This document shows positions 6,798-32,600 of a stretch of 64,000 nucleotides of DNA, one piece after another. A program made the position numbers and the translations under genes. Every line of letters starts with the position of its first letter. Positions within the stretch are counted from its first letter, which is position 1. The notes beneath the pieces were generated by a model. The model saw nothing but the letters and a program-made list of their open reading frames with translations, ran no database searches and was not told the origin of the DNA. This DNA comes from Trypanosoma brucei (Eukaryota), in NCBI GenBank assembly GCA_000002445.1, contig CP000067.1, positions 128,001-192,000 on the forward strand, in the 5' to 3' direction.

Positions 6798-6860
6798 TAC
6801 TACAATATTTGGTTAAATGCTAATCTTCAGTGCAAAATCGAAAGCGTAATTTAAAAATAT

Positions 6861-10145: not shown

Positions 10146-10317
10146 AACTTACCTGCCGGAGTGTTCCTTTCTCTTCTCTTAATAACAAAACAAAAAAAGA
10201 AAAAGAAATATACTGAGAGAGGTATGACAGAAGACAACGATAAGGAGCAGTTGCAGAAGGTAAGCAAACAAACGAATGTTAGGGTGCATGTGCGTGCAAG
10301 CAAAGACATCAGATATG

Positions 10318-10320
10318 CAC

Positions 10321-10355
<35 letters not shown>

Positions 10356-10356
10356 C
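10318..10356. repeat. (ACAT)n-(AT)n compound microsatellite in the GAR1 5' flank
   Basis: acatacatacatacatatatatatatatatatatatata read directly. Confidence 0.9.
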
Positions 10357-10427
10357 AGGCACGCACAGGCAACATTAGGCGACGTCAGCCCAACAGGGTC
10401 CAATAAAAAAGTAGAGAGGGAAACATG

Positions 10428-11980: not shown

Positions 11981-13627
11981 CTAACTATCCGACGATATTT
12001 CTATGCCGTTACATTTGACGACACTCTCAATGATGGTACTCATAGAAACTAACCCGCTTTTCGTCAAGGATCCTGCAGTGCTCTGAAAAAGCAGGAACTC
12101 CTGAAGAATGGCTACAATGAGTTTCATCGGTTTCGATTCCACAGCCTTCCCCGTTTCTGTCCCTTTCGTTGCCTGCGCCACAGCCGTTATGACAGGCACA
12201 CGCAGCTGAACTTTCGGCGTGTCGATGAGGGATAGAACAGCAAGCAGTAGCGCGTAATACCCGGAAACGACGTTCCGCTCCGTTTCCTCTGCGTTGTAAC
12301 ACTGCAAAGTCAATTCTGCAATCCGAGAGAGAAAATCCGGACAATTAACTAAACATCGGGCAAACTCGTCGCATCTAGAAGCGACTTCCCACTTCACAAT
12401 GTTCACTGCAGAGCAGAGGATGAAGGCTGCTACGTTCAAGGGAGTGTTGTCACTCATCAGCCTTTTGGTAGAAAACTCAGCGAGCTGTGACCTCTCACGC
12501 CGACGATTCGAATCCCGCAGTGCATGCGGAACAAGACTCGTGCCATTAACCAAAACCCGCAGAGCAATAGTTAGCACATCATTTTCGCACTTTGTGTCCT
12601 CACGCGCCACCAAACGTATCAAAAGGATAACCAACTCTTGCAAAGCCGCATCATAAGATGGGCACAACCGTTCGCATAATGTCACAACCTCCAGCAGGTG
12701 AAGCACATCTTTGCAGTCCGCGTCGTTCAGCATGGGTGTCACAACCTCAAATCCGCCAAGCTCAGCAAACACAAGGCAAGGGTTAGCTTCCCCTGGAAAC
12801 GAGGTTGCTTGATTGTACCTAAAAATAATGTGGAGTAACGCCTTAAGAGCTAAGGAGGTTGCGGTATCATCTGATTTCCCGCGGCAAAACTTGTCAACAG
12901 CTGACTTCAGTGCTGAATCATCTTGACGCCGTTGCTTAGGTGGCGTCGGGCAATGTGCCCGCTGCGACCAGTGCTTTGATCCAGCTGGTGTTGCAGCAGC
13001 TTCCTCAGCTCGCTTCTCGGAGCTCAGAAGAAAGAATTTCACCAAACTAGCATCGGATAATACCTCATCGTCGCATAGAGTTAACAAGTGGCCGACAAAA
13101 CGAATATAAAGTCCTTCTTTGTTGTCTGTAACGCTGCGTGCGGAGGATTTGCAGAGAGCGCTGAGCAGTTGCGATTGCAGTCCAGCTCGTTTCAAAGATT
13201 GCATTACCATATCTGGCTCATGTTCCATAAAGTAGAGGACAAGTGCCATCAGGGCCTCAGGTGTGCGTGACGATGAGGCGACCTCAGCCAAGTATACGCA
13301 CATATCCGCAATATTTTCCTCTTCCCTGCAAAAGAAGTTCATTTCTGTTTCAAACACGCTCCCCCGCAACCTCGGAGAATCCGCCCTCTTGACCAACCTA
13401 ACCCTTGCCTCATTCACCGTAGGGATATGCATGGTATCAGGACCGGGTACGCTGCCGCCGCTGCTGCTACTACAATTTTCGTTTGAAGTATCACTACGCA
13501 ATGACAGTTGCATAGCTTCACCATCTGAAGATTGGCTTAATGGAGGGGATTCAGCCGTCCGCTTGCATGCCATAAAGGAGTCCAAATAACCAACGACATC
13601 GGCCATGCACCGCTTGCGTTTCGACAT
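11981..13627 (-). CDS. Conserved hypothetical protein, 548 aa, Ser-rich N-terminus and alpha-helical (ARM/HEAT-like) C-terminal half
   Basis: Long ATG-initiated ORF (ATG 13625-13627) in the cluster orientation with non-repetitive composition. I recognise no diagnostic catalytic motif. Confidence 0.6.
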   Translation of the reverse strand: MSKRKRCMADVVGYLDSFMACKRTAESPPLSQSSDGEAMQLSLRSDTSNENCSSSSGGSVPGPDTMHIPTVNEARVRLVKRADSPRLRGSVFETEMNFFCREEENIADMCVYLAEVASSSRTPEALMALVLYFMEHEPDMVMQSLKRAGLQSQLLSALCKSSARSVTDNKEGLYIRFVGHLLTLCDDEVLSDASLVKFFLLSSEKRAEEAAATPAGSKHWSQRAHCPTPPKQRRQDDSALKSAVDKFCRGKSDDTATSLALKALLHIIFRYNQATSFPGEANPCLVFAELGGFEVVTPMLNDADCKDVLHLLEVVTLCERLCPSYDAALQELVILLIRLVAREDTKCENDVLTIALRVLVNGTSLVPHALRDSNRRRERSQLAEFSTKRLMSDNTPLNVAAFILCSAVNIVKWEVASRCDEFARCLVNCPDFLSRIAELTLQCYNAEETERNVVSGYYALLLAVLSLIDTPKVQLRVPVITAVAQATKGTETGKAVESKPMKLIVAILQEFLLFQSTAGSLTKSGLVSMSTIIESVVKCNGIEISSDS

Positions 13628-14453
13628 TGGTTAAGCAGATACAAAGATGGCGGGGCACTTTACCAGCCAAACTCCTCTACCACACAAGTGCAAGAAAAAA
13701 AAAAGATGTCACTTCACTTGGAAACACGAAAAGTAATTTCATACATACACACAAAGGGAACCTGTCAGCAGCATGGGACCAACCAAATCACAGCAGATGT
13801 GGTATAAATACATATAGAATTAATAGATATTACAATATAAAAGAAAGGCAATAAATTTTTAAAAAAAAAGCAACGGAAAAAGTATTACAGATAATTTTTG
13901 GGGAGGAAAGGTTGAAAAAAAAAACGAAAATGAAAGGAACATAATGAAAGGTAAATCATTGCTAGGACCACCGTTACACAGGCGAGTCCTGATGCAACAA
14001 TTTTCATACAGCGTTGTGTCACACACAATTCTCACACGTATTGACAACAGCGCAGATGTGCAGTGCCTAGTGGGTTACACAATACCGAATTTCTTTCGAA
14101 GTAGGAGAAGTGAGGAGACACATAAAATAAATGACAAGGAAACAAATAAATAAAATGAAGGCGCACAAACGAACTTAACAACAGAAAAGTCGGAACGAGG
14201 ATGGAAGCAAAGCGCAAGAGAAAGTAAGATGGATAATGAAACGGGAACAGGCAAACAACCGGACGCCCATTCAACGATAGTACGGTCTCTTTAACAAAAA
14301 AGCCAAAGAGGACTCAAAAAACAAAGTTACAGAACGTGCAAGTATATAAACGTAACTGTTGTTGATTGATGGGTATATATGAAGAAAACAGTAAAATGAA
14401 AGAGCGAAGAGAACGAAATGGGGACGTAGATCGTCGCTCAATTGTAATTGTAA

Positions 14454-15746
14454 TTAAGCTGGAACTTTACCGCGCAAAATGTCATCATACAGTGCTGTCA
14501 GAGTTGCTCCCGTCAATGAGATTACAGATTTGCTTTTGGTTCCTTTGGTGAAAACAACCGCTCCACAGCCGGTCAATATATTCCTGGCAGTACGGCGCCA
14601 CGCTGGTGGAACTTTTTCCAGAGAGAAACGCCTCCCCAGTAGGGCGGGCTTTCCGACGTTTGAAGTAATGACTTGGAAGAGGCGCCCAGCATCGTAGGTG
14701 CAGTTGTTGTGAACTAGCGACGGCGCAAACTGCCTCACCTGTCGCATATCCCCACATGCGAAAAATTCCTCCGTAACAACCGGTATGCCGCGGGCAACGG
14801 CAATGATAAATTTGGGTGTTCGTACGGGTGGGTGATTGATTATAAGAAGATCTGCCATGCAAACATTATCCACAATAGACCAGCAATGCTTCTTCGCAAG
14901 GAACTTAGCCGCCAGCGTCGCTTCTCCACACATCCCTGAAAAGCAAACTTTCACTCGACCCTTCGATTTACTCTTGGGTTTTAGGCGGCTACCTCTTGCG
15001 GTAGTTTCACTTTTAACCGTAGCTGAGGAAGGCAAGCTCTTAACCTTAGATAACCTGTCAGTGGTGTTTTTAATAACGGAGCGGGATCGTTTCCTCCCGG
15101 CGCCAGTACTCTCCGAAAGATACGGAACCACATTTTCAAGTTCGCAAAGAGGTTTGCACAGCACGCCGCAATCCAATTGCACAGAAACAACAGCGCAAGT
15201 TTTTTCATCCGATGCGGCGGTCAGAGTCACCGGCAGCGGGGGTGTTGCATCCGTTCCCGCAAGGGAACAAGAAGCACAAATGGATGAGCACACGGTTCCT
15301 TCAAGACGAAGCAAATCGTTGCTGGCCCCATTCATCCCAGAACCCTGTGATGAATCCATTAGGTTTGCATTTGAGTCGTAGACGGGAACTCTTCCCCCGC
15401 AAACGGCAATAACGTCCCATTCAAAGCGCAATTTCAAGTCACCAAAAGTAACATGGTTACCGCGCTTCAACTGGTAGAAAAACCCCGGCTCCAAGCGTAC
15501 ACTCACACCCGTGTCGGAGTGAAGGAAAGTTCCGTTAGTGCTTTCGCAATCGCGTAGCCACGCCTCCCCATTTTCGCATAGTTTGATGATGGCGTGCGTA
15601 CGGCTCACGTTGATGCATGTGGTGCCGACACAAACAACGTTTGCACCCTTGACTGCTATTTCTGCTCCACGACGGATGATGTTTTCCCCAGTTAGCAGCC
15701 GCATGATCCTCCCAGTAGATTCATCAATGAGAAAATACCTCTTCAT
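14454..15746 (-). CDS. FHA-domain protein with C-terminal BRCT-like domain(s) (Nbs1/Xrs2-like architecture)
   Basis: N-terminal FHA signature (RIMRLLTGENIIRRG...NVSRTHAIIKL...WLRDCESTNGTFLH). The C-terminal region VKVCFSGMCGEATLAAKFLAKKHCWSIV...TPKFIIAVARGIPVVTEEFF is a BRCT-like pattern. The track start is GTG. The first ATG is at 15744-15746 (MKRYFLIDESTG...). Confidence 0.6.
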   Translation of the reverse strand: MKRYFLIDESTGRIMRLLTGENIIRRGAEIAVKGANVVCVGTTCINVSRTHAIIKLCENGEAWLRDCESTNGTFLHSDTGVSVRLEPGFFYQLKRGNHVTFGDLKLRFEWDVIAVCGGRVPVYDSNANLMDSSQGSGMNGASNDLLRLEGTVCSSICASCSLAGTDATPPLPVTLTAASDEKTCAVVSVQLDCGVLCKPLCELENVVPYLSESTGAGRKRSRSVIKNTTDRLSKVKSLPSSATVKSETTARGSRLKPKSKSKGRVKVCFSGMCGEATLAAKFLAKKHCWSIVDNVCMADLLIINHPPVRTPKFIIAVARGIPVVTEEFFACGDMRQVRQFAPSLVHNNCTYDAGRLFQVITSNVGKPALLGRRFSLEKVPPAWRRTARNILTGCGAVVFTKGTKSKSVISLTGATLTALYDDILRGKVPA

Positions 15747-16165
15747 CGGATACCTTAGGTATACCACGAGGGGGTTGCGCCTCCGAGCACTAAACCAAAG
15801 GGCACAAGCATACGCGCACACAATAGGAGGCAGAAAAAGAAAAGTAGGAGAGGATGGGAATGTAAATGCGTAGACAACTTATACTAACGTGAATGCGCAG
15901 AGTAAGTCCAAAAATTTGATACTATCTACAATGCTCAGCCATGGGTCAGCAAATGCGCAAGCAAACATACGTGTAGAACACACTTCGCTTTGCTCCCACC
16001 CCACCCCCTCCGCACACAAATAAACAACCTCACAACTTCGGTCCGCACCATTGATTCAGGAGGAACCTCAAATCACCACCAACAGCTGTTCGTTTAGTAG
16101 ATGGCAGTCAAGAAAAAGGAACAAACAAGAAAGGAAGCGAAGAGAAATAGTCAAGTGTGTCGCTT

Positions 16166-16483
16166 CTAGCTTTGCTCCAGAGCATCAGACACCGCCCTCT
16201 TCACTACAATGCCAAAGTGTTCATTTGGGCCGGCAATCGTAGTAATGACGTACGCAACATTGTCGAACACCATCGATATGCGTTTGAGTTCCTCCCCAGG
16301 CCTAAGTAATGTGGAGGCTTGTTGTGCTACTGTGTAGGCAAGTAGCCGTTTCTCCTCATTTTGGAAGTCACCACTCCACTCCAGCACTTCACCCACGGAA
16401 GTAAATATGACAAAGTGGTTGGCCCCTTGATTCAGAAGCCGATCCTTCAACAAACTCGCTTGACTCATTGCAGCCACCTCCAT
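16166..16483 (-). CDS. Roadblock/LC7-family protein (dynein light chain roadblock-type / MglB-like)
   Basis: 106 aa from ATG 16481-16483 (MEVAAMSQASLLKDRLLNQGANHFVIFTSVGEVLEWSGD...ISMVFDNVAYVITTIAG). Size and pattern match Robl/LC7. The track's upstream extension is polypyrimidine junk. Confidence 0.65.
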   Translation of the reverse strand: MEVAAMSQASLLKDRLLNQGANHFVIFTSVGEVLEWSGDFQNEEKRLLAYTVAQQASTLLRPGEELKRISMVFDNVAYVITTIAGPNEHFGIVVKRAVSDALEQS

Positions 16484-16881
16484 CCCTTCCCTTTTATAAC
16501 GTGTGTCAAATTGATGGGACGAAGAAAAATGAAAAGGAAGCAAAAAGAGGCAGAAATACGTTAACACATAAACGAATATATAGGTGTGTGTGTCTACGCA
16601 CATGGTGCCAGTAGCGTCATCCAGAAACAAGCGAAACCAACGCACAAAATAGGAAGGTGAGCAAAAACATCAAGAGCAGATACCATCTGGAAAAGGCGTA
16701 AAAATAAAAAAAATGAAACGTTCGAACATCAGGAATAATCCTCTACACGAAGTATGAGATAAAGAAATCATAAGAGAAACCCCCCTACAATTTCACAAAA
16801 AATACGCACATTCACAAAAACACATATATTCATAAGCGCTATTTATTAGTTTTCGTGCACACGAGTATCCCGTCATTATCC

Positions 16882-17493
16882 CTAATAATGTTTCTTGGGT
16901 GTCTTTTTCATTTTTGGTTTTCCTTGGAACTGCACATACATTTGCTCCTCGAAGCTCAGATCCTCCAACAGCACCGGTTTGGGTTTGTTCCGCCAATGTG
17001 GGCCCATAAAATGCTGACGGTCCGTCAACTCCTTATGGCGCATGACCGCATCGGGATCCATGTTTCCGTATCCCCAGTTCGTCATTGGCACAAAGTCACG
17101 ACGCCCTGCGCCATGGGGAAATGCATCCGGACTTTCCCTCTCTTCACGGCGCTGTATTCGCTGTGCGTGGTGCTCGAGAGGGTTTACAACACCCCAATCA
17201 TATTTTTCACTTGCGTTTGGTATGAGACGCAGTCGTTGTTTTGATACGCACATGCGCCCATACGCAATTCTGTCCAAAGCACTCGCCAGCTGAAGCTGCA
17301 ATGTCTGACCGCCATCACCGCGGCTCAGTAGCCACTTTTCCCGAACCTCTACAATTGTGTGTTGTCGCACGAGAGGATCACTAACACTTGAAGCAAGCGC
17401 AATACATTCCTTATACAGTGCCAACTTTGCTATACGGTTGTGTATGTCCTTCCCTTTAGCCAGTGGAAGAGTCTGAAGCAGTTGTTTGTTCAT
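16882..17493 (-). CDS. Conserved hypothetical, possible LYR-motif (Complex1_LYR-like) mitochondrial protein
   Basis: 203 aa with ATG at 17491-17493. N-terminal KLALYKECIALASSVSDPLVRQHTIVEVREKW resembles the L-Y-(R/K) ... R ... F/W pattern of LYRM proteins. The remainder is basic. Confidence 0.5.
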   Translation of the reverse strand: MNKQLLQTLPLAKGKDIHNRIAKLALYKECIALASSVSDPLVRQHTIVEVREKWLLSRGDGGQTLQLQLASALDRIAYGRMCVSKQRLRLIPNASEKYDWGVVNPLEHHAQRIQRREERESPDAFPHGAGRRDFVPMTNWGYGNMDPDAVMRHKELTDRQHFMGPHWRNKPKPVLLEDLSFEEQMYVQFQGKPKMKKTPKKHY

Positions 17494-17984
17494 AACCCAG
17501 GCATTCCACGGGGACTCCTAACCCAACTATTTGAATTCTCCGATAGGCACCGTGCACACATACATGGACACGCACATTCCATTGCAGTCGAATGAAATAA
17601 AAGAAAAAGTAAAGAACAAAAGAAGAGGATCAAATAAACAACTTAAGAGCAAAGCAAAACAAGTGAGAAAGCATACTTATTTCATGGAGGAGATAAAGCA
17701 GACATTGCTTCTCAGTGCATCTATGTGCAAAACACCGTCCGTAAAGTAGGCAAATGCGTTAAAGCAAACAATCGTAGGTCACGAGATGTCGTGTGTTTGC
17801 ACCCATTCGTATCGATGTATCTATAAACGAAGGTAAAAATATGTGTGGTTCGCCTTTCTTTTTCCCCTTTACCCCCCCCCCTCTTTCCAAGAGGAAAGCA
17901 AAAAAAAGAAATTCTACCTACTAAACAAAATGAAGTGTGCGGAAATATTTGCAAGGGAGAAGGAGCCATCCCTTCCCTCTCGCC

Positions 17985-19517
17985 TCAGCGGTTGGTATCA
18001 GCACTCGGCTTAAGTGCTACTGCACCGAAAAAAGACATTAAATTCTTCTGAGGGGTAGCGCCCTGGCGCTCAACTTTTGGCGGCCCCCTTCGCTCCACCG
18101 CCACTTTTGCAGAAGCTTTGCCCCCACCGCCTACTGCAAGGGGGTTTTTGCTTCCGGCGTCATGTGTTGATTTTTGCTCAGTCGCGACGCACGTTCGCAT
18201 CAACTCAGCGCTTTTCTTATGATATTCCTCTTCAGATAATACCGCACCCGTCTTTACGTGCCGGTACACCACCCTGTCGCTGCAAATGTACTCGCCGCCC
18301 TCAAAAACCGTGTCCGTTTCCAGCTCACGTGAATACTCTTTCTGAAAGGCAATCACCTCCGGTTGAAAGAACCCCGTAAGTTTTGGATGTGCTGAGAGTG
18401 CAGCGTTGCCATTAGCTGCCTGTGTCCGATGTGGATCCCTCTTTAGAGGAGATGAGGTTGGTTCGGGGGCGCAGAATATCATCGGTGGTGCATTGTCACA
18501 CAAAATTATCTCATCATTCTCTGCAGGTGTAAAAGCGACCTCAAGCACAGGTTCAGGGTCATCTAAGAGGCCTTCATCGCGGTGTGGGGAACGGTTTCCA
18601 CGACTGCTGCCATCGGATTGCTCTTCATCATCAAGAATATCTCGAGACGATTTGGCATTGTCTGTATTACAGCCATTTGCAGCTGCAGCTGCGCTTGACG
18701 ACCCAGTAAGGCTGCTCTTCTTGGATGCCTTAGCGAGTTTCATTAAACTTGTAGTGGCTTCACCAACTTTCGCCTCCTTTTTGGATTGGGCGCGGGGTTT
18801 CTTCGCCTTCGGGGACGCCTTCTTGCTATCTTCAATGAGCCGGTCCCGCTTCGCCCCCCCAACTGGCATACCCAAAAGCGTTTGCTGTTTCTTGCCACCG
18901 GACTCCTTTGGAATTAACTTCGGAGCACCTTCCGCTGCCGCCCCACTCAAAGAAACCGGTGCAGGGTTTTTTCCCCTCTCCATCTCATCCATCCTATTCT
19001 TTTCTTCTTCCTCTACATTCTTAACAACATTCTCCTCTTCCAACCGCTTCATCGGTTCCTCTGTCGGAGGGGGTGGAGAGGGCGCCTCCTTCACAGATGG
19101 TTTCGGCTCCGGTGACCTTTCCTTCTTTACTGGAGGCGGAAAGTCATCATTCACCAATACGGGCACAAGTTTGCGTTCCCGCTGTACCACACCGTTTCTT
19201 GGCACCAGAGCGGGACGGGTCTTCCGGGGCTGAAATGCAGACGCGGGACCTCGCTTTCGTAATGCGTACACTTCCACAGAGGCTTCATTGAGTGTTTCCC
19301 GCGTCCATTCAGCTGCAGCAGCACCACTGCACAGATACACAACAGTGCTATGAGGTTCAGTACCGCGGCCGGTAACGGTAAAAAGCACCTCATAACCTTC
19401 CTTTGATGTGGCAATGTTCTCAAATGCCGCGCGCACATCAGCTTTCGGCAGCGGTACCTCAGAGGCGTGAACAAAGTATGAACTTTCCACCTGCTGCAGT
19501 AAATCTAGAGGAGACAT
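17985..19517 (-). CDS. DNA polymerase delta subunit 3 (Pol32/POLD3)-like protein with C-terminal PIP box
   Basis: 510 aa. Structured N-terminal ~100 aa, then a long Lys/Pro/Glu/Ser-rich disordered region. The extreme C-terminus QKNLMSFFGAVALKP is a canonical PCNA-interacting Qxx[LIM]xx[FY][FY] motif placed as in POLD3. Confidence 0.45.
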   Translation of the reverse strand: MSPLDLLQQVESSYFVHASEVPLPKADVRAAFENIATSKEGYEVLFTVTGRGTEPHSTVVYLCSGAAAAEWTRETLNEASVEVYALRKRGPASAFQPRKTRPALVPRNGVVQRERKLVPVLVNDDFPPPVKKERSPEPKPSVKEAPSPPPPTEEPMKRLEEENVVKNVEEEEKNRMDEMERGKNPAPVSLSGAAAEGAPKLIPKESGGKKQQTLLGMPVGGAKRDRLIEDSKKASPKAKKPRAQSKKEAKVGEATTSLMKLAKASKKSSLTGSSSAAAAANGCNTDNAKSSRDILDDEEQSDGSSRGNRSPHRDEGLLDDPEPVLEVAFTPAENDEIILCDNAPPMIFCAPEPTSSPLKRDPHRTQAANGNAALSAHPKLTGFFQPEVIAFQKEYSRELETDTVFEGGEYICSDRVVYRHVKTGAVLSEEEYHKKSAELMRTCVATEQKSTHDAGSKNPLAVGGGGKASAKVAVERRGPPKVERQGATPQKNLMSFFGAVALKPSADTNR

Positions 19518-20634
19518 TTAATGTGCTTCTAGCTCGATTATGTCTAACTACTCTGTTCTCACGCTGCCTCGGTCTATCTAATTTTAGCTCGCCCTCCCTA
19601 GTTGCTGCTATACCTTTACTGTCGACGTTGTTCCCATGTGAACAGTGCAAGTATGAAAAAAAAGGGGAAAAATGAAGGTGAACGATAGAAAAACAAATTA
19701 TGTAATGACAAACTCTCCTCCGGCTATGTTTAATTCCCCACAATAAACTGGCCAATGCGTTGCATGTAAGAAACAAAAGACGCACATTCCCCCCCCCATT
19801 TGCAACATCATCAACGAGGCTAATATCCGCATAACCAGCCATCACCAAACACAAAGACGCAGATCGCAATAGTTCATATCAAACAAGCCTAACCATATGA
19901 TGCAACAGGAAAGGCAAGGAAGAAAAGAGTAAGAGGGATTTGAAATCTTCCCCTTAAGTACTGTAAAATACTTATCATTACTGTTACTTTTACTGTTATT
20001 ATCATCATTACTATTATGGTCTTTATTTCCGTTTGGCGTTAACTGTAGAACAATATCAATAGCAACGGCAATAATATTAAATTATGTCGATAGATTTGGT
20101 TTGACTTTTCTCCCTTTTACTCCTTCCATTCCTCTATTGATAAGGAAATGGAGGGAAAGAAAAAAGACTAATAAGAAAAAACGGGCGAATTGCAATGATC
20201 ATGGAAATACTTGTTTTCACTGTGGAACTCTACATACGCGGACGATACGTGCACTACCCAGTTCCAAGTGCTGTGCAGTAAAAAAGAAACTCTTCTATAA
20301 CATCTTTTGTATATCAATGGTACCGTTGCGGCTTCATGAAACCTGTATTATCTCCTTTCCTCTTTCCACTAGGAAAATAAGTAAAAGAAACAAAAAAAAT
20401 GTTAACTGAAGGTCATAGAAGTACGTGGGAGCCAGAGGGCATCTAAACAACAAAAGAGGGGAGGATATGTTGCGCCACTGGTGACGCTACGACCTTGAAG
20501 TACTAAAAGAAGAAAATAAAACAATAATGACACGATAGTACGCCAACCGTTACAACAACAACAACAGTAACGTTGCTTATGTACCCACGGTGCGGTTTTT
20601 CATAACTATGCATCTATGTAAATAACCAGATCAA

Positions 20635-20662
20635 TGAATAATAATAATAATAACAACAACAA
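20635..20662. repeat. (AAT)6-(AAC)3 trinucleotide microsatellite
   Basis: aataataataataataacaacaac read directly. Confidence 0.85.
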
Positions 20663-20744
20663 AAACACATTATCGCCTCAGGAGCAACCCCATCACGTAT
20701 GAAACGCTCTCAAACACTCCTCTGTCATTTTTGGGAACAAACAT

Positions 20745-22292
20745 TTAATCATCGTCCGGATCCACAAAATCCGGCAGTTCATCTAATCCCTCCCATTCCT
20801 CAGGGATATTAATCTCCCAATAAGCTGGCAGGCTAAACACCTCCTCTGGTGAATATTTCTTCAGACATTGCTCCACAACACGCAAAACCTTCTCTAGCCG
20901 CGATTGCATTGTAAAAAAAATTGTGAGGCCTAACATGTTAAAGACAAAAGGGTGTAACACCTTCCGCACATGCGCTACCAGCGGAAGGGTACGATATAAT
21001 GAATCCGGTTCATCATACGCCTTCAGTGCATCATATGTTCCACGCCTGAAGCGGCAAATGGAAATATTCGCTACATTCCCAGAGAAGGGATTATTACTGG
21101 GATCAGCACGTGAATAAAAACCGCTACCGTGATCAAGAAAAGCGTACTTGGCGAGTCCCTTGATGCGTTTGTCCTTCATTGGTCGGTCACAAACGGTTTC
21201 ACGACCGCAGCCACCGTACACAAAGTTGTTGTGGTCATTCATACCGCGATCACTATTACCAATGATGAAGTCGAAAATAAAACGGTCATTAAGCTCACCG
21301 ATAGCCCGCAACCTCGCGCTCTTTGGAGGCCAAAATGAACTTCCTGGAATGAAATACTTCTTGGCAAAGGCATTGTCATACTTATACGGCAGCTCCAAAA
21401 AAGTTTCCAATGCTGGATGGACATCATGCATCCATAGTTGAACAGAAACGTAGGCGCAAAGTGAAGCACGAAACGGTGGGTGTCGTGAAGAATTTGTGCA
21501 AGACACAAAGTCCTCTTTGATGTTCTTATCTTCAAAAATAGTGTTCGACGCCCACTGCGAGAGGAGAGGGGAAGTTGCGGCAGCGGCTTGCATATGCTCC
21601 ACGGGAAGAGCAACTAACACTGTTGTGGGAACTCGTGACAAGTTCAGGGCGCGATCAACACTAAAAGCAGCTACCTCACTACTGGCCTCGAAGTAAAACC
21701 TACCCTGAGAAACCTTCACTAGCGCTTTGATTCCATTATGGGCATATGTAATCCTAAACTTTATCGTGCGCCCGTACAACAGCTTTGACGACATGGCCTT
21801 AATGTAGCGCATGTTGTTCAGATTGCTAAGGTACGCCTTGCAAAGTTCATCACGTTCCACCGTAAACTCTGCGTTGCGTCTATCGCACGCCTCCCATTCG
21901 CCTCGTTTTGATGAATTGACAGTTGCAAGATTGTACGGCAAAGGCACACCCAGCCCTGGCTTGGCAATGATGTCTGTGAACTTACCCGATGGTTGCCAAG
22001 GGTCTCCTTCAATTTCCTTCAGGAGTAAATTGTTCGCAAACGTTCGTAGCGCCTCAACGTACTCTTGTGGGAGAATGTAATCCACTGCAGCCACTTGTGA
22101 ATCTTCTGCAGTTTTTTTGGAAATTGGAGTGGGTGCCTCGCCTACACGGCTGGATGAGCCAAGGGTTTTATATAGTAAGCCACAACATACACACACAGGC
22201 ACCATCAAAATAAGAACAAGGAAAATTAGCACACGGCGCCTCGCACGTGTCCACTTCACGCGGCTACGGCGGCTGAAGTGACGAAAAGACAT
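20745..22292 (-). CDS. Type II membrane protein with Fam20/Four-jointed-like secretory-pathway kinase domain
   Basis: N-terminal signal anchor ([22 protein letters not shown]). GIKALVKV...[20 protein letters not shown] matches Fam20C (K)...[38 protein letters not shown] matches LDFLMGNMDRHHYE (catalytic loop). LDHGSGFY matches IDNGRGFG (metal-binding D). Confidence 0.55.
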   Translation of the reverse strand: [515 protein letters not shown]

Positions 22293-22745
22293 ATTTTCTT
22301 CGTTTTGTTATTCTCGTTAAAAAAATCAGCGGAATCGCCACAACTATTTGGATCACGCAGTCGGCAACGAAATTAGATTCATCGTTGCATGAGAGGCAGA
22401 AGGACACAAACAAGTATGACCATCAGGGGGGGGGGAAAGAAAAAAGAAAGGATGACAAAGTGGAAGCAAACATTTGCTCACAAAATAGAGAAATAGGTTA
22501 ATGGGAAATGTATGCATGTTTAAAAATAGAAAAGGATAGGGAAAAAAACCGAAGGCATAACAGGAAACGTGCGTGCAGCAACGAGTGAAATATGCCCAAT
22601 GATAATCACACTAACAACAATGCCAAATAAAAAGTGTCCGACTATACGAAAACAAAAAAAACCATTCAAAGCACCAAAACAATTCCTTTTTTTTCATTTG
22701 AGGGTCCGGTTCCTGGCGCACATGCGATTACGCCAGCCGGTTTAT

Positions 22746-23180
22746 TCACTCCTCAGTTTTAAACGTTTTCTTCGCATTATGTGTGTTGTCCTCCTCTTTA
22801 ATAATGACCTTCATATCGCTCTGCTCTTCACTTTCCCTCTTCACACCGGTCCTGTCTTCCAACCGCTGTTTCTTTTGGCTAACCTCCGCGCGGGCTTCTG
22901 CGACCAACTGCCGCTCCACGCCCTTCACACGCTCTTTATACGCCTCCCACTCTGTTGGTTCCGGCACAAACTCCTGTCGCTGCTGTTTAATGCCCCATCG
23001 CAGCTGTTGAGTTCTACTGAGTCGCGTCGTCGCGGCCCCACGTGATGGCGTTACGCCTTTGCACTCAAATGTCCAATGCGCTTTAGAACCACACTTTTGG
23101 CACGTTTTCTTCGCATTCGAGGTTTCGTCAACTCCGCGAGGGGTGCTATACTTCCGCGGAGGTCCTTTGTTGCCGTACAT
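22746..23180 (-). CDS. ZCCHC10-like CCHC zinc-knuckle protein
   Basis: 144 aa. CQKCGSKAHWTFEC is a C-x2-C-x4-H-x4-C knuckle near the N-terminus, followed by a charged Lys/Glu-rich tail, as in ZCCHC10. Confidence 0.6.
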   Translation of the reverse strand: MYGNKGPPRKYSTPRGVDETSNAKKTCQKCGSKAHWTFECKGVTPSRGAATTRLSRTQQLRWGIKQQRQEFVPEPTEWEAYKERVKGVERQLVAEARAEVSQKKQRLEDRTGVKRESEEQSDMKVIIKEEDNTHNAKKTFKTEE

Positions 23181-23602
23181 TTTGCTATAATGCTACAAAA
23201 CAACAATAAAGGATGAAAAAGATGCATTTACAACTAATACAAACAACACCTACAAGACAGAACACCAGCAAAACGATATGCTCATGAAGGAGGTTATACA
23301 AAATACAAAACGAGTAAACAAACAAACAAACAACTCCATTTTTCTTTTTTTTCCTCTCTTCATTGTGTGTTCGAAATGATGTGTTGTGGACATCACTGAG
23401 CAAGTAGCAGGAACATTTTTCATATATTAAGAAGCCATGGCTTCAATTCTTTTCTGGCAATTGGTGTTACCCCCCCCCCCCACCTCCCCTCCTTCCTTTC
23501 TTCCTTCTTTTTCATTCGTTATTACGTCTATGTTACTGGTTTTTATTTTCCGCACAAGCAAAATATGTGAAACGTTAGGCGGAGTGAGCGAAAGAAAGAC
23601 AA

Positions 23603-26600
23603 CTAGGGCTCCAGCACCAGCGCAACACCCGCCAAAATGAAAGCTTTAGCGGCAAGCTCGCTGGCACAGGGTAAATGTAATTCTGCAAGAAACATTTCCT
23701 TCGTGCCATTGGTGTATAACGGTACACCAACAGTGGTTACCGAATCCGGCATTGTGGTCATCCAACCAACATAAGTCTTTGGCATTGGAAATAACGCAGC
23801 CTCGTCCGCTGCCTCAATGGATTGCAATACATTAGACTCATCCAGTACAGCACCTTGCAGCATTAACCCCTCCAAACACACAGGGACTGTTTTACCCTCT
23901 GGTGGTGTAGAAATTGAGGTAACAAGCCGAAGAGCCACGAGAGGTTCGTGAAGGGAATGGGCAGTTTCCTGTCGAAGTGCATGCAAAAACGTGTGCGGTC
24001 GGAACATGGTGGAAATGTTAAGTGAAGACTTGAGAAGATTCCCATTCGTGGCCAACTCGAACAACTTTGCGATTGACGTTGCTCGATGCAACAGTGACTG
24101 CAGCCACGGTAAAATGCGAGGAGAGCCCTGATAATAGTTGTCCCATTGAGCCGGTACCTCGCCAGCGATCATTGTTGAAGCTTCAGCACGCCGATCTTCC
24201 CTCAGCAGAGCTTGACCTTCCAGAACCTTACCCAAGTCCTTCATCGACTCGTCCACAATGCTCACAAGACGCAGTGAAGATGTCATTTCGGCCCCCATGA
24301 AACCGAGAATTGGAGATGCATCCCGTGCAATACTAACTGTTTGCTGCAACAAGTCAGGGTTGGGCCGCATGAGTTCCTCCCACACTTGCAGAATTGGTCT
24401 CAACTTGTTTGCCCACTGTTCACGACTCATGGATGACTCACCTCTTGCTTCAATAAGGAGCTGCAAATCGTCTGTTAGTGCACGAACCTTCGACAACTGC
24501 ACGACGCGATCGGCATTTGGGGGAAGCGAAAAGACGAAAGGAATGTCATTTTCTGGTAGTTCTGATATCACCTTAAGGCAATCCCCATGCTTTCCTGATG
24601 CAGGTACTTTTACCTTTGCAAAGAGATTCATCTGTTGCTTCGCACTGGAGAGCACATTTGGATTAAAAAATTGATCCGTGTACTCCCTGAGGACGCGCAT
24701 GTCATACTCATTTTCCAAGCGAGAGCCATAGATGGCATCCTCCATGAGGCCACGAATAGCACGCCAGTCGGTCTCTCCCTTTGCTTGTTGTAGGACAATA
24801 TCTGAGGCGGACTTAAGATCAGCCGACGTCATTTCGTATGCCTTTGTCCAACCCTGTGGAATGTACGAGCGTCGCTCCTGCAGAATGGCGTGGAACGATG
24901 CCGTGATAAAGAGTAATTGCGTGTGAAGAGTTCCCTTTGCATCGTAAGGACCACTTTCCCAATCCTGGTAAGTGTGAAGAAGGTTTTGCTGTACACCCGG
25001 TGGTGCCTCAAAGGTGATCTTAAGGCACTGAGAAAGAAAAATTGAAGGGAAATCGTCATGCGCCTCGCTTGTGAGGAATAGTCGGAACTTGGAGTCCGGT
25101 TTAAGAACGTTCAGCTCCTTCTGTAGCGCTGTGACCCATGGGATCACAAGGTGCAAATTCTTTAGGAATAGCCAATCACCACTCTCAGCGCAGGCCCGCA
25201 ACAACCGAACAGCTTCCTCAGCCTGTCCACCACCCATAGCAAGTTGGTGGAAGTGATCCCGCCCGACCTTCTGATGAGCAATCGCTTGTAATTCCTGCGA
25301 GGGGTCAGCACCAGTCGTCGTGATTAACAAAATAGGCGTATTTGCCTCCGTACGAGTCAACAGTTGGGCGAGAGTATTATTGTCACCATAAGATTTAACA
25401 TGCAACATGTCACACGCCGTGCTTCTCACCGCCGCCATTAGCCTATCAGGACGAAGAGTCTTAACGACCAGTAATCGCTGAAACCTTGAAAGTTGACTAA
25501 TGAATTTGGGATACGATACCTCTGGGTTGGAGGAACGCATCCACTGCAACCAAACATCAGCCTCATGAAGAGAAAGCTTCGGTGTGAGATCTTCAAATAA
25601 CACGGCAAAGGAGCGATAAAGATCTCTGCTGTCTGGGAGTACCCACGTGGGCACCCGTACTTCGCTCTTCTTTGCTTCAGGGGCGATGGCGCGGTCAAGA
25701 AAGAAGTCCCATTCAGCAGCAGTGCAATCATTAGGGTACAGAGAACGAGCAAGGTGGATCCCGAAGACTGTACGGTGCTCCTTAAACAGGGAAGTGCAAA
25801 CCGAAGACACAACGCTTCGCACAAATGTCTTCGTTAACGCATCAATTTTAGTGTCGATATCGGTACGATCTTCTGCGTGGTGATGCAGTGTGTCGTTGAA
25901 TATCCCCATAAAGAAGCTGAAAGAAAACTGATACATATGCGACAGGGCTTTCAGACTTTTCACAATAAAGAATATTTCACTCGCCGTTTTTGCGAATGGT
26001 CGGTACACATTGCGCTTGGTATCGATTTCCTCCTGAACCTTCTTCGACGTTTCTAGCGCCACACTAATCTCCGCAGCCTGTGTTTTGATTTCGTTAAGGG
26101 AGTCAATCAGCGTTTTGTTATCCAGTAGCGATCCCTTTGACTCCGCTAAGTCTTTGAGGAGCGATTCCTCCAGATCGCTTAGTTGCATTTTCAGTCGCTC
26201 TTCTTTCTGAAGGACGGCAAGTTTCTCCTTCTCCAACTCCGGCTGTTCGTGTTGAATGGTTGCACCCAAAAACTGCCCCTCAAGACCATTTTGAGTTATG
26301 GAGAAGTTAACAGGAGTCAAGTAACTGAGAACGTCTGGGGGAATCCAAAGGTCAGTGGAGTTGGTAACGAGATAAAGTTGGAATCCATCCGCGTAGTCCA
26401 CCGTGCGACGGTCGCCGAACTGAATGACGCGTTTTGTACCCTCGGTCCGAAGTTCTTTTCGGAAGAGCGGGTACATGAACGCCTCAATGCCGTCTACATC
26501 AGTGAGAATAAAGCTCTTACCGAAGCGAAGCGCCAACTCCAAAGAAGATACAAACCGTTCTTCAGACACACTACAAACTTCCACTGATAGGCCCTTGCCT

Positions 26601-29600
26601 TTTAGGTGATTCACCAACCAGGACAGAGCCTGACCAGAGGAATCAATAATAAGCGGCGTTGTAACCTGTTCCTGTATAATCACAGCGTTATCCATGGACA
26701 GTTCATCTCCAGGAAGCCCTTCCGATTTATAGTGTAGTTGCATACTTTCTGGCCTCATAAATGTAAAGAATTCGAAATTGTCAACATCTTTCAACCGCTC
26801 TTTCCACACGTTCAAGGCGGTCCGGCGACCGTCCTCTGTAGCGTTACCAAGGTAGAGTATAAAAGCCGCAGCAAGAAGGCACCGCTTTGGTAAAAGAACC
26901 TGGTTCTCACGTATTACCTTGATCTGTGACACCCACCTGTCATGCTCGGAAGTGAGCTTTGCCAAAAGGTCATGGGCACACGCATACAAGCGCTCAGCCT
27001 GCTCAGCATGATCCTTGAGTCGCTCCGCCTCAGCCGTTCTCTCCCCAAAGTTGCGCTTCAGTCCCTCCACTCGCTCCTCCAACTTTGTTAGTTTCTCCTC
27101 ATACTTCCGCTTCTTCTCACTCCGACTCGCGAGACTCACCTCGTATTCCTTCAACTCCGCCTGCATCGGGCCCATCGTCTGAAGCACGGAAGAATACTCC
27201 AACACAGCCTTAATCCACTCAGCCATGGGGGCTGCAGCTTTTGAGGCACGGCCAATGACTTCTCGCTTGAAGGAGTTCTCGTGGTTCTGCATGAACTGTG
27301 TGACTCGCAAACGTGTTGCCTCCGTGAAACCAGCGATATTAAAATTGATGATCTGTTCCTTAATATCACCCGCTAGGATCTTACGAATGGATGCCCAATT
27401 CGTATCACCGCCACCACCTCCACCAATAGTAATAATGACGGCCTCCATTACGTCTTGCACAGCCGGCGGGGGTTGCTTGAGGGATTTCAACTCTGAAAGA
27501 TGTTCACTTCGGATCGAGCGTACGGCCGAAAGCGCCGCGTCAAGTGTTGGCTGAATGCCACTAAGACGTTCCTCAATCACACTTTTGCGTTCCTCAATGG
27601 CTTTCTGCTCCTTCTCTAGGTCCTTTCGGATCTTCTGAATATTTTTCTTTTGATCACTGGCCGCCTCCATATTAGTCTTTATCTCTTGTAGCGCATCGTC
27701 GGCCTCCTTTTGTTTGACTTCCATCAGTTTTCTCTTTTCAACAACGTCGGTTGCGATTTGGTCGACGTTCTCCTGTGCTTCATCGAGTTTCGACACACCG
27801 GTCTGCAGGCGTGTAATGCCCTCAGAGATCATCCGGCTCTTCTCTTTGAAGATACTCTCGTACGTGAGGCACAGCCCCTTGAAGTGTTGTGGGGAAAAGG
27901 TATTGATGTACTCTTTATGCACATGCACAATCTCCGTCGTCAGACTGAAGTCCTTCTTGTTATCTCGGCTGTCAATAGATTTGAACACATCCCGCATCAA
28001 GAGCCGGGGTATCAGCTTGAAACTGTCCGTGTGCCACGTCCCTACCCAGTAAACGTTGCAGCGCGTGAACAGAGCCGGATTGGAACGGCACTGCGGTTCG
28101 TAATTGGGATTCGTAGGGTCCATCACAACACACACGTGCAGCATTCGGGCAATTCGGTCAACAAAGTACGCATATGCACTCATACCCTCACCCAACGCAT
28201 CCTCCTTGAGTGGTGCGGTCATTGCATCCAGTTCCTCCTGCGCGAATAGTCCAGGAACCTCACCCGAGGCCAGAAGGGAATTGATAGTTTCAAGGAACGA
28301 CGAGTTCACGGTGAAGTTATGGTCCTCCAGCAACAATACAACATGCTGTCCCTCAACACCCGCCTTCATCATAATAGTCTTCAGTTCCGCGTTGAACTGC
28401 TTCATGCTGTACTCGCGGGTGATTCCCAATGTGACAAGTTCCATTCTCAAGCCGTACGCGGCGAGGCGAACAATACCGGCGGCGCACACGCCTGATCGGC
28501 CCACAAGCAGCAAGTTCCCACGTTCCTGCGACAGTACGCGATCCACGCGGGCCATCCAAACACAAACTTCGGGGATAAGTTGAACGTCGAGGTCAGCAAA
28601 CTCGCGCGAGTAACCCAACACAAAATCTTCAGCAGGTTTCTTGAGCTCTTCATTCGCGATGGGAGTCAGCTTCTTCTTCCCAATTGGCGATGTATCCATC
28701 CACGACACAAAGCTTGTCGTTTCTTTTTCACTGAGACCAGATTTGTGGCCAACGAGGAATATTAAGTTGTCGTGTATGACTTTTGATATCTTGGAGCGCT
28801 CCTCAGTAGTGACGAGACGGTCAACAAATATTCGGCGACCCTCGTAGCCGATTGCGTTGGTAACATCTTCTGGATTGTAGTTCAGCAAGTTGAGAACCCA
28901 TGAAGTAACGTCACGCGGGTTAAACATATAGTGGGACGCTACATTGACGGTGTAACGACTTGCCACTGCTTCGTAAACAGTAGTCATAATGCGTGCAATG
29001 TCAACAGCACCTTTTCCAGGAAGGTTGAGTTGAAGGCGGCCGCTCTGAATCATAATATTGAAGAATTCTGTGTATATGTTCTGCATCGCCTCTCGCGAGG
29101 GGTACGACATGGCGAGCACAGAGACCATAGCAAGGAAACGCGGTGCAACAGGGTGGCGTCCCATGCTCCCTGGTGGGTTCATGCTTCCGACAATTTGTAC
29201 CCGCTCCAAACTAATCCACTCCAAGTCAGTGTCATAGAAACCATTGTACAATACAATCTGTTGGAGCAGGGAGTGAAGCTGGACCGTGCCGTACTTATCT
29301 GGTTTCGGAAGATTCATGTCCTTCAAAAGAAGCACAAGGCGCTCCACTTCCTTGGGGCGCAACACTCGCCCTTGATTTGTGTTGTACACTTGACACATTT
29401 GTTTAAGTTTTTGAATAACATGGGTGGCCTCGGTCTGAGCGGAGCAGTTAACGGCGGTTACACGAGTACCAGGCGTTTTTCCAAACAAGTTGGTCAACAA
29501 CATCTTTTTCCCACATCCTTCAGGGCCGACGAGAATGAATGGACGGTATATGCCCGGACGCACTGGCTTCATCCAGGCTTGTAGAATCTTAACATTACGT

Positions 29601-32600
29601 TGACAGTCGACAGTTGCAACCATTGGGTCGCGGTATAGATCCTCCACAGAGAGGTCAGTGCAGGGTTCCACATCAAAAGTCCTATAGCAGTTGCTGGACT
29701 CATCGTAGTAAACATCTAGAGGATTCTTTGGATCAGGGAGTCGCTCCGACATCATGCTATGTATTTCCTTAGCATAATCCTTTCTGTACTCCTCCGTGAG
29801 ATATGAGCCCAAGCCATACACAAGGGCCAGAGCAAACTGTGCTTTACCAGTGCACCCCTGAAGTTGACTGAGTCCCGACGCAACCAAGCCAGTACGAGTG
29901 GTGTCAACAATTAACTTACCGGTGGCCAACAGAGCGTCAATCGCCTTGTAGAAGTAGTCATTAATCCATCTCTCCAACTTATCACGGACATCTTCGGGTT
30001 GCTCCACCAACCACGAGGTGACCATCATCTTGGGATCCACATCCTCCTCCGAAAGGTAAATAATACCCGTGCGTGAGACGGTTGCAGGTGACGCGAATTC
30101 CAGACTGTGCGTTTCAAATATGAAGTTTACGTTGTCTCCAAACTGAATACGCACACCATTCGGCATGGTAAGCAGTTTGTTGTCGTCCAACACTGAGTTT
30201 AGAGACTCCACCCACTCGGGGTCAATATCACCGTCGCAGACAATCCACGACAGTACGGAGGTTTCCTCCTTCACAACTTTACGAGCCGCCTCTGTAAGGA
30301 CACCATCGAACCACTCGCGAGTGTCGTTGTCCATGTAACCAAGCAACTGCGTACGCGGCAAGGCCTTAGGATTCATTATATACTGCGGAATAACCTTACC
30401 AAGTCGTTGCAGGGCGCGGCGAAGAATAAGAAGAAGCGTACTCTTTCCACTACCTCCAGGACCAACCAATACAACACCCATACGCTGTCTGAGGGCCTCG
30501 TACAGTTGAAGAACTTTCTGTATTTGTGCCTCCACAAGCTGCAACTTCAGTTCCTTAACAGATTCTTCAATAGCGGGACGTAGCTCAGCATAGTCAATCT
30601 CCTTTATCGGAGCGCCGGGGAATATGTCAGCGATAAGGTTGTTGTACAGCAGGGCATCATCGAAGGTAAGTTTGGAAAGTGTGTTGACACGTAATGATTT
30701 GATAATAATCTCACTTTCTTTTTCGAATATTTCCTCGGGACTGGGGTTGACTTTTCCACATGCACGTTCTGTAAGGTACTCATGAATTAACGTCCCACCC
30801 AGCCGCAGCACGGCCTTCATGGAACGCAGACCCCAATCGTAATGTGTTTGGAATGACAAGAGGTCTCTCGAGAGCTTAAAAACTTCTACCGTTTTCCGTG
30901 CCAAATCCACCGCATTTTCGAACCCCTCACTAAAGAGAATGGTACGTGTAATGAGTTCGTTATCTGGCACACTCATTGCGACTGAACGGAAGAGTTGCTT
31001 CAAGTTGTCGGGCAGTTTGCTACGGCCACCGTACCGCTTACCCGCAGGGTTTAACGTAACAAAAATACCGGCGTTTGAATCCACGTTGATTTCCTTCCCC
31101 ATGAGATGGCAACGAGGCTCACCATTCTTTATTGCTTCTTGAATCACTTGAATCATCTGCGACACTGCCGACAGTTGATCTACCTTAAGACGGTTAAACT
31201 CATCGAAACAACCCCATGCCCCACACTTGACAAGCCCAGTAAAGATACGACCCATGGATTTGAAGTCAATACCCTCATCACAGTTAAACACAAGCACCTG
31301 ACGACCCATCGCATTACCGAGTGCTTTAACAGACTCAGTTTTTCCTGTGCCCGCAGGTCCATATGGGTTACCACCGTAACCGAGTTGCATACCTTGCGTA
31401 AGCGTCAAATAGCAGCGGTCCGTCAGGGGCGTGTGCACAAGCTTGGGTGCATTACCCTGATACTCGTAACTGTACCGAAACTCCGCACCGACCATCCGGA
31501 GTACACAAGAATCACTGTAATCCATGTAAAAGCGGAGTTGCTTTCGCCACAACCAATCTGTATCCTTCTCAATACCAGCATCAATCAGGGCATCAACAAC
31601 TTCAATATTGTGAATAAGGTCCATAATGAGTGCTTTTACCTTCAGACCAATTACAACGTCACTGTTCCCACCAGCATACGTCGTCAATTCGCGTAGTTGT
31701 GCTTGAAGATTTGCCCTGTGTTTCTTTAACCCACCACTCTTAGCGTCCCGTATAGCATCTTCAGTCTGCTTGGTGAACGTGATCAAACCAGCCGTAGAGA
31801 GAATTTGAGACGAGTATGCGCCAATGTTTACCTTGTCAACACAACGTACTAAGTGTAATTTGAGTGTGTCCTTTACTGCAAGGTCTAACCTCCCCAACCA
31901 TTCTTCTACTTCCTCCGTGATCAAAACAGACTCTTCAATGGGCACCACCTCACCTTCAAGGGAATTGATTTGCAGGATGTGCTCCTTTGCATCGTCAAAC
32001 CGGACGCTGTGAACACCCATGAACAGTTTCTTCAGATGAGATTGAATGACAGAGGGATTGCGACTGTGGGCTAGAATCTCCAGCAAGTCATCATCGCTGA
32101 TAAAGTAGAAGCGCGGGAAACTATCACGTTTCGCCTCAAGAAATTGATTCAGCGCACGCTGACAGCGATCTAGCTGTTCCAACACAGTATACAGTACGTC
32201 CTTGAATTCCGTATGGCCTGCAAGGGAAACAAGACGACTATCAGCCGCGACAACCTTCATCACCTGCAAATACTCTTTATCAATCCTTGAAAAACGTTCC
32301 TGTTCCTGTGGAAGTGCACCACGGCGGAAGATAGGCTCAAGGTACACCCACTTGCGTTGAATTTGGCTCATATTACGGAGGTATTCATCAAGACAGGCAA
32401 GTCGCTCCTCCCATTTGTTTGCGTCGTTAGCAAAAATCCCAAAGTATGGAGACTCCTTCATACTCATTAAGAGTGCTTGGTTATCACTGAGAGCCGACAT
32501 CGTGTCCTTCCACTCTGTAATGAGTTTAACACCTTCACGATCTGGATGCGGAATAAGTGTAAATTTAGCATTGTTACCCCACGAACGCACATCGTCTAAA

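Follow-up and report, generated by a model that had tools for sequence, protein, structure and literature searches.

The closest described relatives of the protein analyzed here are the Fam20 proteins of the secretory pathway. Fam20B is a glycosaminoglycan xylosylkinase with structures from Hydra (Protein DataBank 5XOM and 5XOO; the Hydra enzyme is also called hmFam20). Fam20C, the Golgi casein kinase, is represented by ceFam20 (4KQA and 4KQB) and by the zebrafish (5YH0) and human (5YH3) enzymes; it carries a cleaved signal peptide and is secreted. Fam20A, which has a Cys-containing insertion in its Kbeta1–Kbeta2 loop, is a secretory-pathway pseudokinase, in which Gln258 replaces an essential Glu and ATP is bound in an inverted orientation (PMC5413348). 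Here, we examine a gene within a 64,000-nucleotide stretch of Trypanosoma brucei chromosome 4 (contig CP000067.1, positions 128,001 to 192,000; hereafter, the window). A preliminary description had proposed that this gene encodes a Fam20/Four-jointed-like kinase, and the open reading frame (ORF) it gave is present exactly:

20745..22292, minus strand: Fam20-like kinase gene (chromosome 4), a complete ATG-initiated ORF of 515 residues plus stop (ORF listing).

By every comparison we ran, the encoded protein belongs to the Fam20 superfamily, and it is a member of a divergent euglenozoan Fam20 branch with its own motif signature. Judging from its sequence, we place the probability that it is an active, lumen-facing, membrane-anchored kinase of this superfamily at about 0.72.

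The homology was evaluated with several independent tools. Pfam PF06702 (Fam20C), which the preliminary description had named as a check, matched the protein above the gathering cutoff (E = 9.3e-8; 32.4 bits versus 26.8) over residues 386–485 only, and the similarity greatly exceeds chance expectation. The same family was matched by 22 of 23 aligned orthologs (E ≤ 0.01), with no competing family. A phmmer search of PDB sequences retrieved Hydra Fam20B (5XOM, E = 7e-7), aligned across residues 200–351. When the 23 orthologs were combined into a profile, six distinct PDB sequences were significant, all of them Fam20 proteins with E values from 3.4e-13 to 3e-8 (Fam20B, 3.4e-13; ceFam20, 2e-9; zebrafish Fam20C, 3.4e-9; Fam20A, 7e-9; human Fam20C, 3e-8). 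The next match, the type II phosphatidylinositol 4-kinase (PI4K-II) beta, was not significant (E ~0.8). Aligning the ortholog profile with hhalign against animal Fam20 sequences gave a probability of 96.4%; this animal set, also used for the motif comparisons, consists mostly of short fragments retrieved with a 152-residue Hydra Fam20B segment.

Structure prediction led to the same family. The AlphaFold2 model of the protein has a predicted local distance difference test score (pLDDT) of 85.7 and a predicted template modeling score (pTM) of 0.81. The best 27 Foldseek matches to this model are all Fam20 chains, making the Fam20 fold the closest solved structure. In a separate structural comparison, the Fam20 proteins were followed by PI4K-II alpha (16.3), CtkA (13.4), HipA (11.8), CotH (11.5), and actin-fragmin kinase (11.4). 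Fam20B ranked first by phmmer, by ortholog profile, and by structure. PF06702, phmmer, the ortholog profile, hhalign, and AlphaFold2 with Foldseek thus support the proposal of a Fam20-like secretory-pathway kinase in a kinetoplastid.

The three motif blocks on which that proposal had been based lie at residues 206–225 (21618..21677), 340–349, and 386–393, and HMMER pairs them with Fam20A, Fam20B, and Fam20C segments of solved structures. The single-sequence Pfam match misses the N-terminal blocks, which the PDB and profile searches recover; the phmmer alignment with Hydra Fam20B includes the first two. For the first block, the likeness to Fam20 held, but in the PDB alignments the string labeled Fam20C belongs to Fam20A, and the zebrafish Fam20C string ends in VPPVA. 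A PDB search with the catalytic segment alone (residues 324–401) gave only chance-level matches to HIV protease (E ~0.6). Searching NCBIfam with the window protein returned no match, as expected of a prokaryote-oriented library. Fj/FJX1 was absent among the sequence and structure matches, in a comparison set that held no Fj/FJX1 reference.

The preliminary description had also assigned a type II membrane topology, which is borne out as a prediction by the basic tail, the sole hydrophobic segment (residues 21–41), and the similar arrangement in most orthologs. From the N- to the C-terminus, the layout is as follows:

22233..22292, minus strand: predicted cytoplasmic tail, residues 1–20, strongly basic (residues 1–21 contain nine Lys/Arg and no Asp/Glu).
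22170..22232, minus strand: single predicted transmembrane signal-anchor, residues 21–41, the sole hydrophobic segment of the protein (Kyte-Doolittle 19-residue maximum, 3.12).
22089..22169, minus strand: low-confidence stem between the anchor and the folded domain, residues 42–68 (pLDDT <50).
21813..22088, minus strand: predicted lumenal N-terminal segment, residues 69–160 (pLDDT mostly >80), with invariant Cys136 and Cys151.
21603..21812, minus strand: kinase N-lobe, residues 161–230, in which K178 and K193 lie on beta strands, followed by E202 and by E206 in the alphaC helix.
21222..21275, minus strand: catalytic loop, residues 340–357, with D348 as the predicted catalytic base and N355 as a predicted metal ligand.
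21114..21137, minus strand: DFG-equivalent LDHGSGFY, residues 386–393, with D387 as the predicted metal-binding Asp.
20838..21137, minus strand: C-lobe region matched by Pfam Fam20C, residues 386–485 (profile positions 125–217 of 218), with C413 and C476.
20748..20837, minus strand: acidic C-terminal tail, residues 486–515, where pLDDT drops towards the end.

The order of tail, anchor, stem, and catalytic domain is the plan of Golgi type II enzymes. In the AlphaFold2 model, a helix at residues 16–45 covers the signal-anchor, and the stem that follows differs in length and sequence among orthologs. The N-terminal tail and anchor were found in most orthologs scanned, including those of Trypanosoma, Leishmania, Leptomonas, Angomonas, and Neobodo, as well as euglenid and diplonemid relatives; in the L. 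tarentolae ortholog, the anchor scan detected no hydrophobic segment above the cutoff. By the positive-inside rule, the kinase domain would face the lumen. Fam20 proteins reach the secretory pathway by means of a signal peptide or anchor and have a lumenal catalytic domain; both features are predicted here, with a signal-anchor in place of the cleaved signal peptide of Fam20C. Trypanosomatid orthologs share the acidic C-terminal tail with its conserved SLP.Y…IPEE core; the bodonid, diplonemid, and euglenid relatives lack this tail.

Residue conservation was assessed in an alignment of the 23 orthologous sequences, which range from Trypanosoma to bodonids and beyond. Twelve residues of the kinase domain are invariant in all 23 (K178, K193, E202, E206, D341, N346, D348, R349, N355, D387, G389, and S390), and H354 is nearly so. 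Within the N-terminal segment, C136, C151, F143, D148, Y154, and N160 are likewise invariant in 23 of 23. The alignment of catalytic residues that the preliminary description had suggested matched K178, K193, E202, E206, D348, and D387 to essential residues of Fam20 enzymes, whose roles are taken from published work (PMC5865150 and PMC5413348):

K178 and K193: the animal Lys residues of GGTQxK and FKPMR (hhalign profile–profile alignment).
E202: the essential acidic residue, ceFam20 Glu213 or hmFam20 Asp152 (adjoins hmFam20 Asp152 in the alignment).
E206: the alphaC Glu, ceFam20 Glu218 (the Glu of the (A/S)E(I/V)AAF..DR helix in HMMER alignments).
D348: the catalytic base, hmFam20 Asp299 (GNSDR pairs with GNADR of Hydra Fam20B).
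D387: the metal-binding DFG-type Asp, human Fam20C Asp478 (LDHGSGFY versus LDHGRAF in ceFam20 and LDNGRGF in zebrafish Fam20C).

Two critical phosphate-binding Lys residues of Fam20C are described in the Fam20A study, as is the assignment of human Asp478 as the DFG Asp (PMC5413348). K178 and K193 are the probable counterparts of that Lys pair. E202 is located four residues before E206, versus five in the Hydra enzyme, and its register in the pairwise alignment is off by one. With these assignments, the full set that characterizes active Fam20 enzymes (the two Lys and the equivalents of Glu213, Glu218, Asp299, and Asp478) is present in the sequence alignments.

The catalytic loop departs from that of animal enzymes. 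As the preliminary description had noted, it continues with GMNDHNNF rather than HHYE after the catalytic Asp-Arg. The suggestion that this altered context signals altered catalytic residues did not hold, as D348 and all other Fam20-essential residues are invariant in the 23 sequences. Because of this invariance, the altered context does not indicate a dead enzyme. Where animal Fam20 proteins carry DRHHYE, the window protein has DR-x5-HN, and the HHYE segment is replaced family-wide by an x5-[H/K]-N motif with invariant N355. Among 185 related sequences, the pattern GNxDR-x(3-5)-[K/H]-N-x-[F/Y] occurs in most loop-containing members; DRHHYE, found in the animal fragments, was seen in none of the 185 euglenozoan-family sequences. 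N355 may correspond to the Asn that binds metal after the catalytic Asp in loops of the canonical, HipA, and PI3/4-kinase types. Weak Pfam matches of relatives to PI3_PI4_kinase and HipA over the catalytic loop are consistent with this assignment.

Taken together, we favor the reading of an active lumenal kinase; homology, fold, predicted topology, and retention of the catalytic residues are established, and lumenal orientation, activity, and substrate are inferred from them. The protein would be a Golgi- or ER-resident type II enzyme, whose lumenal kinase domain (~420 residues) is joined by a flexible stem to a signal-anchor helix and a short basic cytoplasmic tail. Within the secretory pathway, ATP and a divalent cation would be bound through K178/K193, E202/E206, N355, and D387, and D348 would act as the base in passing the gamma-phosphate to a hydroxyl of a secretory-pathway substrate. 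Several observations count against this reading. The PF06702 score exceeds its cutoff by just ~6 bits and is restricted to the C-terminal half, and sequence identity to solved Fam20 structures is 18–21%. The loop also lacks the animal HHYE, and the proposed metal ligand N355 lies at +7 from D348, versus the canonical +5.

As Fam20B is the closest solved relative (21% identity), we compared the residues that form its Gal-Xyl pocket (hmFam20 Thr114, Gln115, Tyr148–Tyr151, Tyr214, Tyr253, His301, and Lys321). In the sequence alignment, the xylose-binding His301 of the Hydra enzyme is paired with Gly350 of the window protein. The pocket segment Tyr148-Glu149-Gly150-Tyr151 aligns with R198–F201 and is not conserved; the remaining positions fall where the alignment is poor or lacking. 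A Fam20B-type xylosylkinase was rejected because the Gal-Xyl pocket is not conserved, with His301 replaced by Gly350 and Tyr148–Tyr151 lacking a counterpart. Elsewhere in the domain, the beta3 Lys motif reads A-x-x-K-V-[S/P]-Q in the window family and FKPMR in animals, and the linker between beta3 and alphaC is ~10 residues shorter in the window protein.

The cysteine pattern is also partly distinct. Hydra Fam20B has four disulfides in its kinase core, Cys207–222, Cys212–215, Cys267–340, and Cys341–400 (PMC5865150). C413 and C476, each at least 90% conserved, align with Cys341 and Cys400 and form the sole clear pair of the four. Cys340 aligns with Ile412 and no Cys aligns with Cys267, so by alignment the Cys267–Cys340 bond is absent. 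By sequence alignment, C265 and C279, situated in a Cys-rich loop, are not conserved in the family. Cys136/Cys151 and Cys362/Cys368 are invariant pairs specific to the window family; the former probably forms a disulfide.

The other described systems are further removed. Fam20C scores below Fam20B, the window protein lacks the HHYE of Fam20C, and neither the S-x-E specificity of Fam20C nor a Fam20A-type activator finds support for the window protein. Type II PI 4-kinases, HipA, CotH, and CtkA show no significant sequence similarity (E ~0.8), lack the signal-anchor and lumenal cysteines, and belong to other cellular compartments.

To define the family, we carried out an exhaustive HMMER search with the ortholog profile against 1.84 billion representative proteins, which yielded 301 clusters at E ≤ 1e-3 and 109 at E ≤ 1e-30. 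Every member with a named organism is from Euglenozoa. These include kinetoplastids (Trypanosoma, Leishmania, Leptomonas, Phytomonas, Angomonas, Strigomonas, Porcisia, Neobodo, and Bodo), diplonemids (Namystynia and Rhynchopus), and euglenids (Entosiphon, Ploeotia, Lentomonas, and Euglena gracilis). Many other members are unnamed environmental sequences, and the distribution may extend beyond Euglenozoa. A profile search of a second, word-indexed protein database found the same euglenozoan proteins only.

T. brucei encodes a second member, P0120 (NCBI: XP_845794.1; Q57V40), a 644-residue protein of strain TREU927 on a 2.2 Mb contig that is annotated as "hypothetical protein, conserved." Its match to the ortholog profile has an E value of 8e-42. 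The Lys/Glu/Glu/Asp/Asn/Asp set is retained, the Cys362/Cys368 pair of the window protein is missing, and there is no Pfam match at all. The paralogue P0042 is not encoded within the 64-kb window. The motif set KV[SP]Q, GNxDR...[KH]N, and LD[QH]G[SM]xF is shared by the window protein, P0120, P0177 (T. cruzi XP_819773.1 and others; E = 7e-14), and P0096 (Bodo saltans CUG53605.1; E = 3.6e-55).

Some of these relatives are fused to glycosyltransferase-like regions. P0177 and P0096 are annotated as "glycogenin glucosyltransferase, putative" and have a GT18-C-like region N-terminal to the kinase domain; P0096 has an additional sub-threshold GT8 match. A C-terminal Fam20-like kinase behind GT8-like and/or GT18-C-like regions was found in P0177, P0096, P0173, P0095, P0121, P0126, and P0130. 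Six proteins, P0177 and P0096 among them, show similarity to the last 90 residues of GT18 in a region N-terminal to the kinase, sub-threshold in each case. The GT8 match of P0173 is the only one of these glycosyltransferase matches above its Pfam cutoff. One environmental protein combines GT8 (28.4 bits versus a cutoff of 24.3) with Fam20C (28.9 bits versus 26.8). The window protein itself has no GT8-like or GT18-like domain.

These observations bear on the substrate. Our best single guess, which we hold tentatively and as a slight lean, is the hydroxyl of a glycoconjugate sugar, by analogy with Fam20B although not on Gal-Xyl. We lean this way because Fam20B ranks first throughout and because fusions to glycosyltransferases occur within this family and in these organisms. 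More doubtful is a fuller scheme, in which members of an ancient, Euglenozoa-wide, Fam20-related branch not derived from animals would work as lumenal glycan kinases together with GT8-like and GT18-like glycosyltransferases, generating a phosphorylated and possibly transient glycan. A substrate that is neither a sugar nor a protein Ser/Thr appears highly improbable. Some evidence points away from glycans. To our knowledge, T. brucei has no UDP-xylose, which excludes a Fam20B-type reaction. Furthermore, the glycosyltransferase fusions are found in distant paralogous clades (profile E ~1e-13) and not in the window protein, and a switch of substrate class is known from the superfamily, between Fam20B and Fam20C at 42% identity (PMC5865150).

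Such a switch within the superfamily would also accommodate a Fam20C-like protein Ser/Thr kinase acting on secreted or surface proteins in the Golgi/ER lumen, a possibility that we regard as somewhat unlikely. The intact catalytic residues and the absence of the Fam20B sugar pocket agree with it, and protein kinases predominate among the structural neighbors. Trypanosomes also have orphan secretory-pathway protein phosphorylation: the threonines of GPEET procyclin, a candidate substrate, are phosphorylated by a membrane-associated kinase without gene assignment, and the window protein is not a conventional protein kinase. In our literature search, we found no later identification of the GPEET kinase, and the later papers that it covered cite only the 2003 activity paper. 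However, the GPEET site (E-E-T-G-P) differs from the S-x-E motif of Fam20C, the GPEET kinase activity is stage-restricted, and the gene is also conserved where GPEET is lacking, as far as the free-living bodonids. Sequence and structure scores are also slightly higher for Fam20B than for Fam20C. A link between the window protein and GPEET is speculation.

A pseudokinase or scaffold like Fam20A, which would bind nucleotide or a partner (for instance, the second T. brucei paralogue) but catalyze no phosphotransfer, is improbable. The likeness to Fam20A is real, as the alphaC block is near-identical and both proteins share the fold and the loop FDFLIGNMDR, and GMNDHNNF after Asp-Arg is unlike the HHYE of all characterized active Fam20 enzymes. 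T. brucei also has at least two paralogues, a setting in which enzyme/pseudoenzyme pairs occur; examples are Fam20A–Fam20C and the TbPRMT1 ENZ–PRO pair (PMC10211241). Yet the residues whose loss defines Fam20A are all invariant here: an acidic residue, Glu or Asp in all members, is retained as E202 at the position of Gln258, and K193, D348, and D387 are kept, so the pseudokinase signature is lacking. The [H/K]-N of the loop is conserved in most loop-containing family sequences, as expected of a functional metal-binding Asn, and P0120 also retains the full residue set. With its essential Glu retained, a Fam20A-type pseudokinase was rated unlikely, and we consider an active lumenal kinase the likelier reading because the residues of catalysis are invariant across the 23 orthologs. 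A wrong topology prediction and other possibilities share the remaining probability with the pseudokinase and with a lipid-headgroup kinase.

A lipid or lipid-headgroup kinase like the type II PI 4-kinases, phosphorylating a phosphoinositide, a glycosylphosphatidylinositol intermediate, or a sphingolipid at the membrane surface, is very unlikely: PI4K-II enzymes are the next-best sequence neighbors (not significant, profile E ~0.8), family members show the weak PI3_PI4_kinase and HipA matches over the catalytic loop, and the DRG..N loop presumably resembles the PI4K-II loop DRGNDNWL, but Fam20 enzymes clearly outscore PI4K-II in every comparison, the predicted location of the domain is lumenal, with the stem keeping it off the membrane, and the conserved Cys pairs are typical of oxidizing compartments, whereas PI4K-II enzymes are cytosolic and palmitoylated.

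The genomic setting is typical for a trypanosome gene. Upstream of the start codon lies one further feature:

22425..22466, minus strand: polypyrimidine tract, with 30-nucleotide windows at 22450–22466 whose coding strand is ≥90% pyrimidine and AG dinucleotides downstream.

Based on general trypanosome gene structure, this tract is likely a trans-splicing signal. The window contains 18 ORFs of at least 250 residues, all on the minus strand except one that overlaps a longer minus-strand ORF, and this layout fits a single trypanosomatid polycistronic transcription unit. GC skew is negative across the whole window (1..64000). Two genes from the Fam20-like gene, 23603..36301 (minus strand) encodes a 4232-residue dynein heavy chain with DHC_N1/N2, AAA, and DYNC2H1 domains; its chromosome 4 location and the published gene identifier suggest that it is the intraflagellar transport dynein DHC2.1 (Tb927.4.560). 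Of the gene identifiers tried for this neighborhood, that one alone was confirmed in the literature; Tb927.4.520 to Tb927.4.550 were found in no main text. Between the two, 22746..23180 (minus strand) encodes a 144-residue zf-CCHC_3 protein. Other genes in the window encode COPI alpha (3219..6797), an AlkB-like 2OG-Fe(II) oxygenase (7156..8220), an FHA protein (14454..15821), EMC1 (41130..43586), a PX-domain protein (46021..47472), and a Casc1_N protein (59983..62046). The sole tandem repeat above the score threshold is located at 10023..10139 (a 51-bp unit in 2.3 copies); it is CCA/CCG-rich, giving Pro/Gly-type codons on one or other strand, and falls inside ORFs at 9456..10145.

The window protein is 100% identical to a T. 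equiperdum entry annotated as "Protein of unknown function (DUF1193), putative," and DUF1193 is the former name of Pfam PF06702. Exact protein matches are encoded on T. b. gambiense DAL972 FN554967.1 (~62–79 kb) and on a T. equiperdum contig. Public annotation of homologues includes DUF1193, "FAM20 C-terminal domain-containing protein," and, on a diplonemid relative, KEGG K20825. The Fam20 homology itself is not new, because the domain match is already present in automated annotation. Literature searches combining Fam20 or DUF1193 with Trypanosoma, Leishmania, kinetoplastid, or Tb927 found no study of a kinetoplastid Fam20-like protein; the "Fam20" of T. congolense (PMC6029126) is an unrelated surface-protein family name. 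The main study of Fam20 evolution searched animal genomes only (PMC5865150). FAM20C is missing according to a 2021 review of Leishmania kinases, although there are Leishmania orthologs that carry PF06702.

Fam20 kinases are treated in the literature covered here as an animal family, and these findings indicate that trypanosomatids encode relatives predicted to be active. The trypanosomatid set comprises the window protein, a paralogue without a Pfam match, and glycosyltransferase fusion proteins, within a large Euglenozoa-wide family. If active, the window protein would be a candidate for orphan secretory-pathway phosphorylation, such as that carried out by the GPEET procyclin kinase, and a divergent parasite-specific enzyme outside the conventional protein kinases. 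Its activity would extend Fam20-type enzymes to a lineage far from animals. Should the substrate prove to be a glycan, the product would be a phosphorylated glycan not yet described in trypanosomes, and Fam20B-type glycan phosphorylation in the secretory pathway would be much older than animals.

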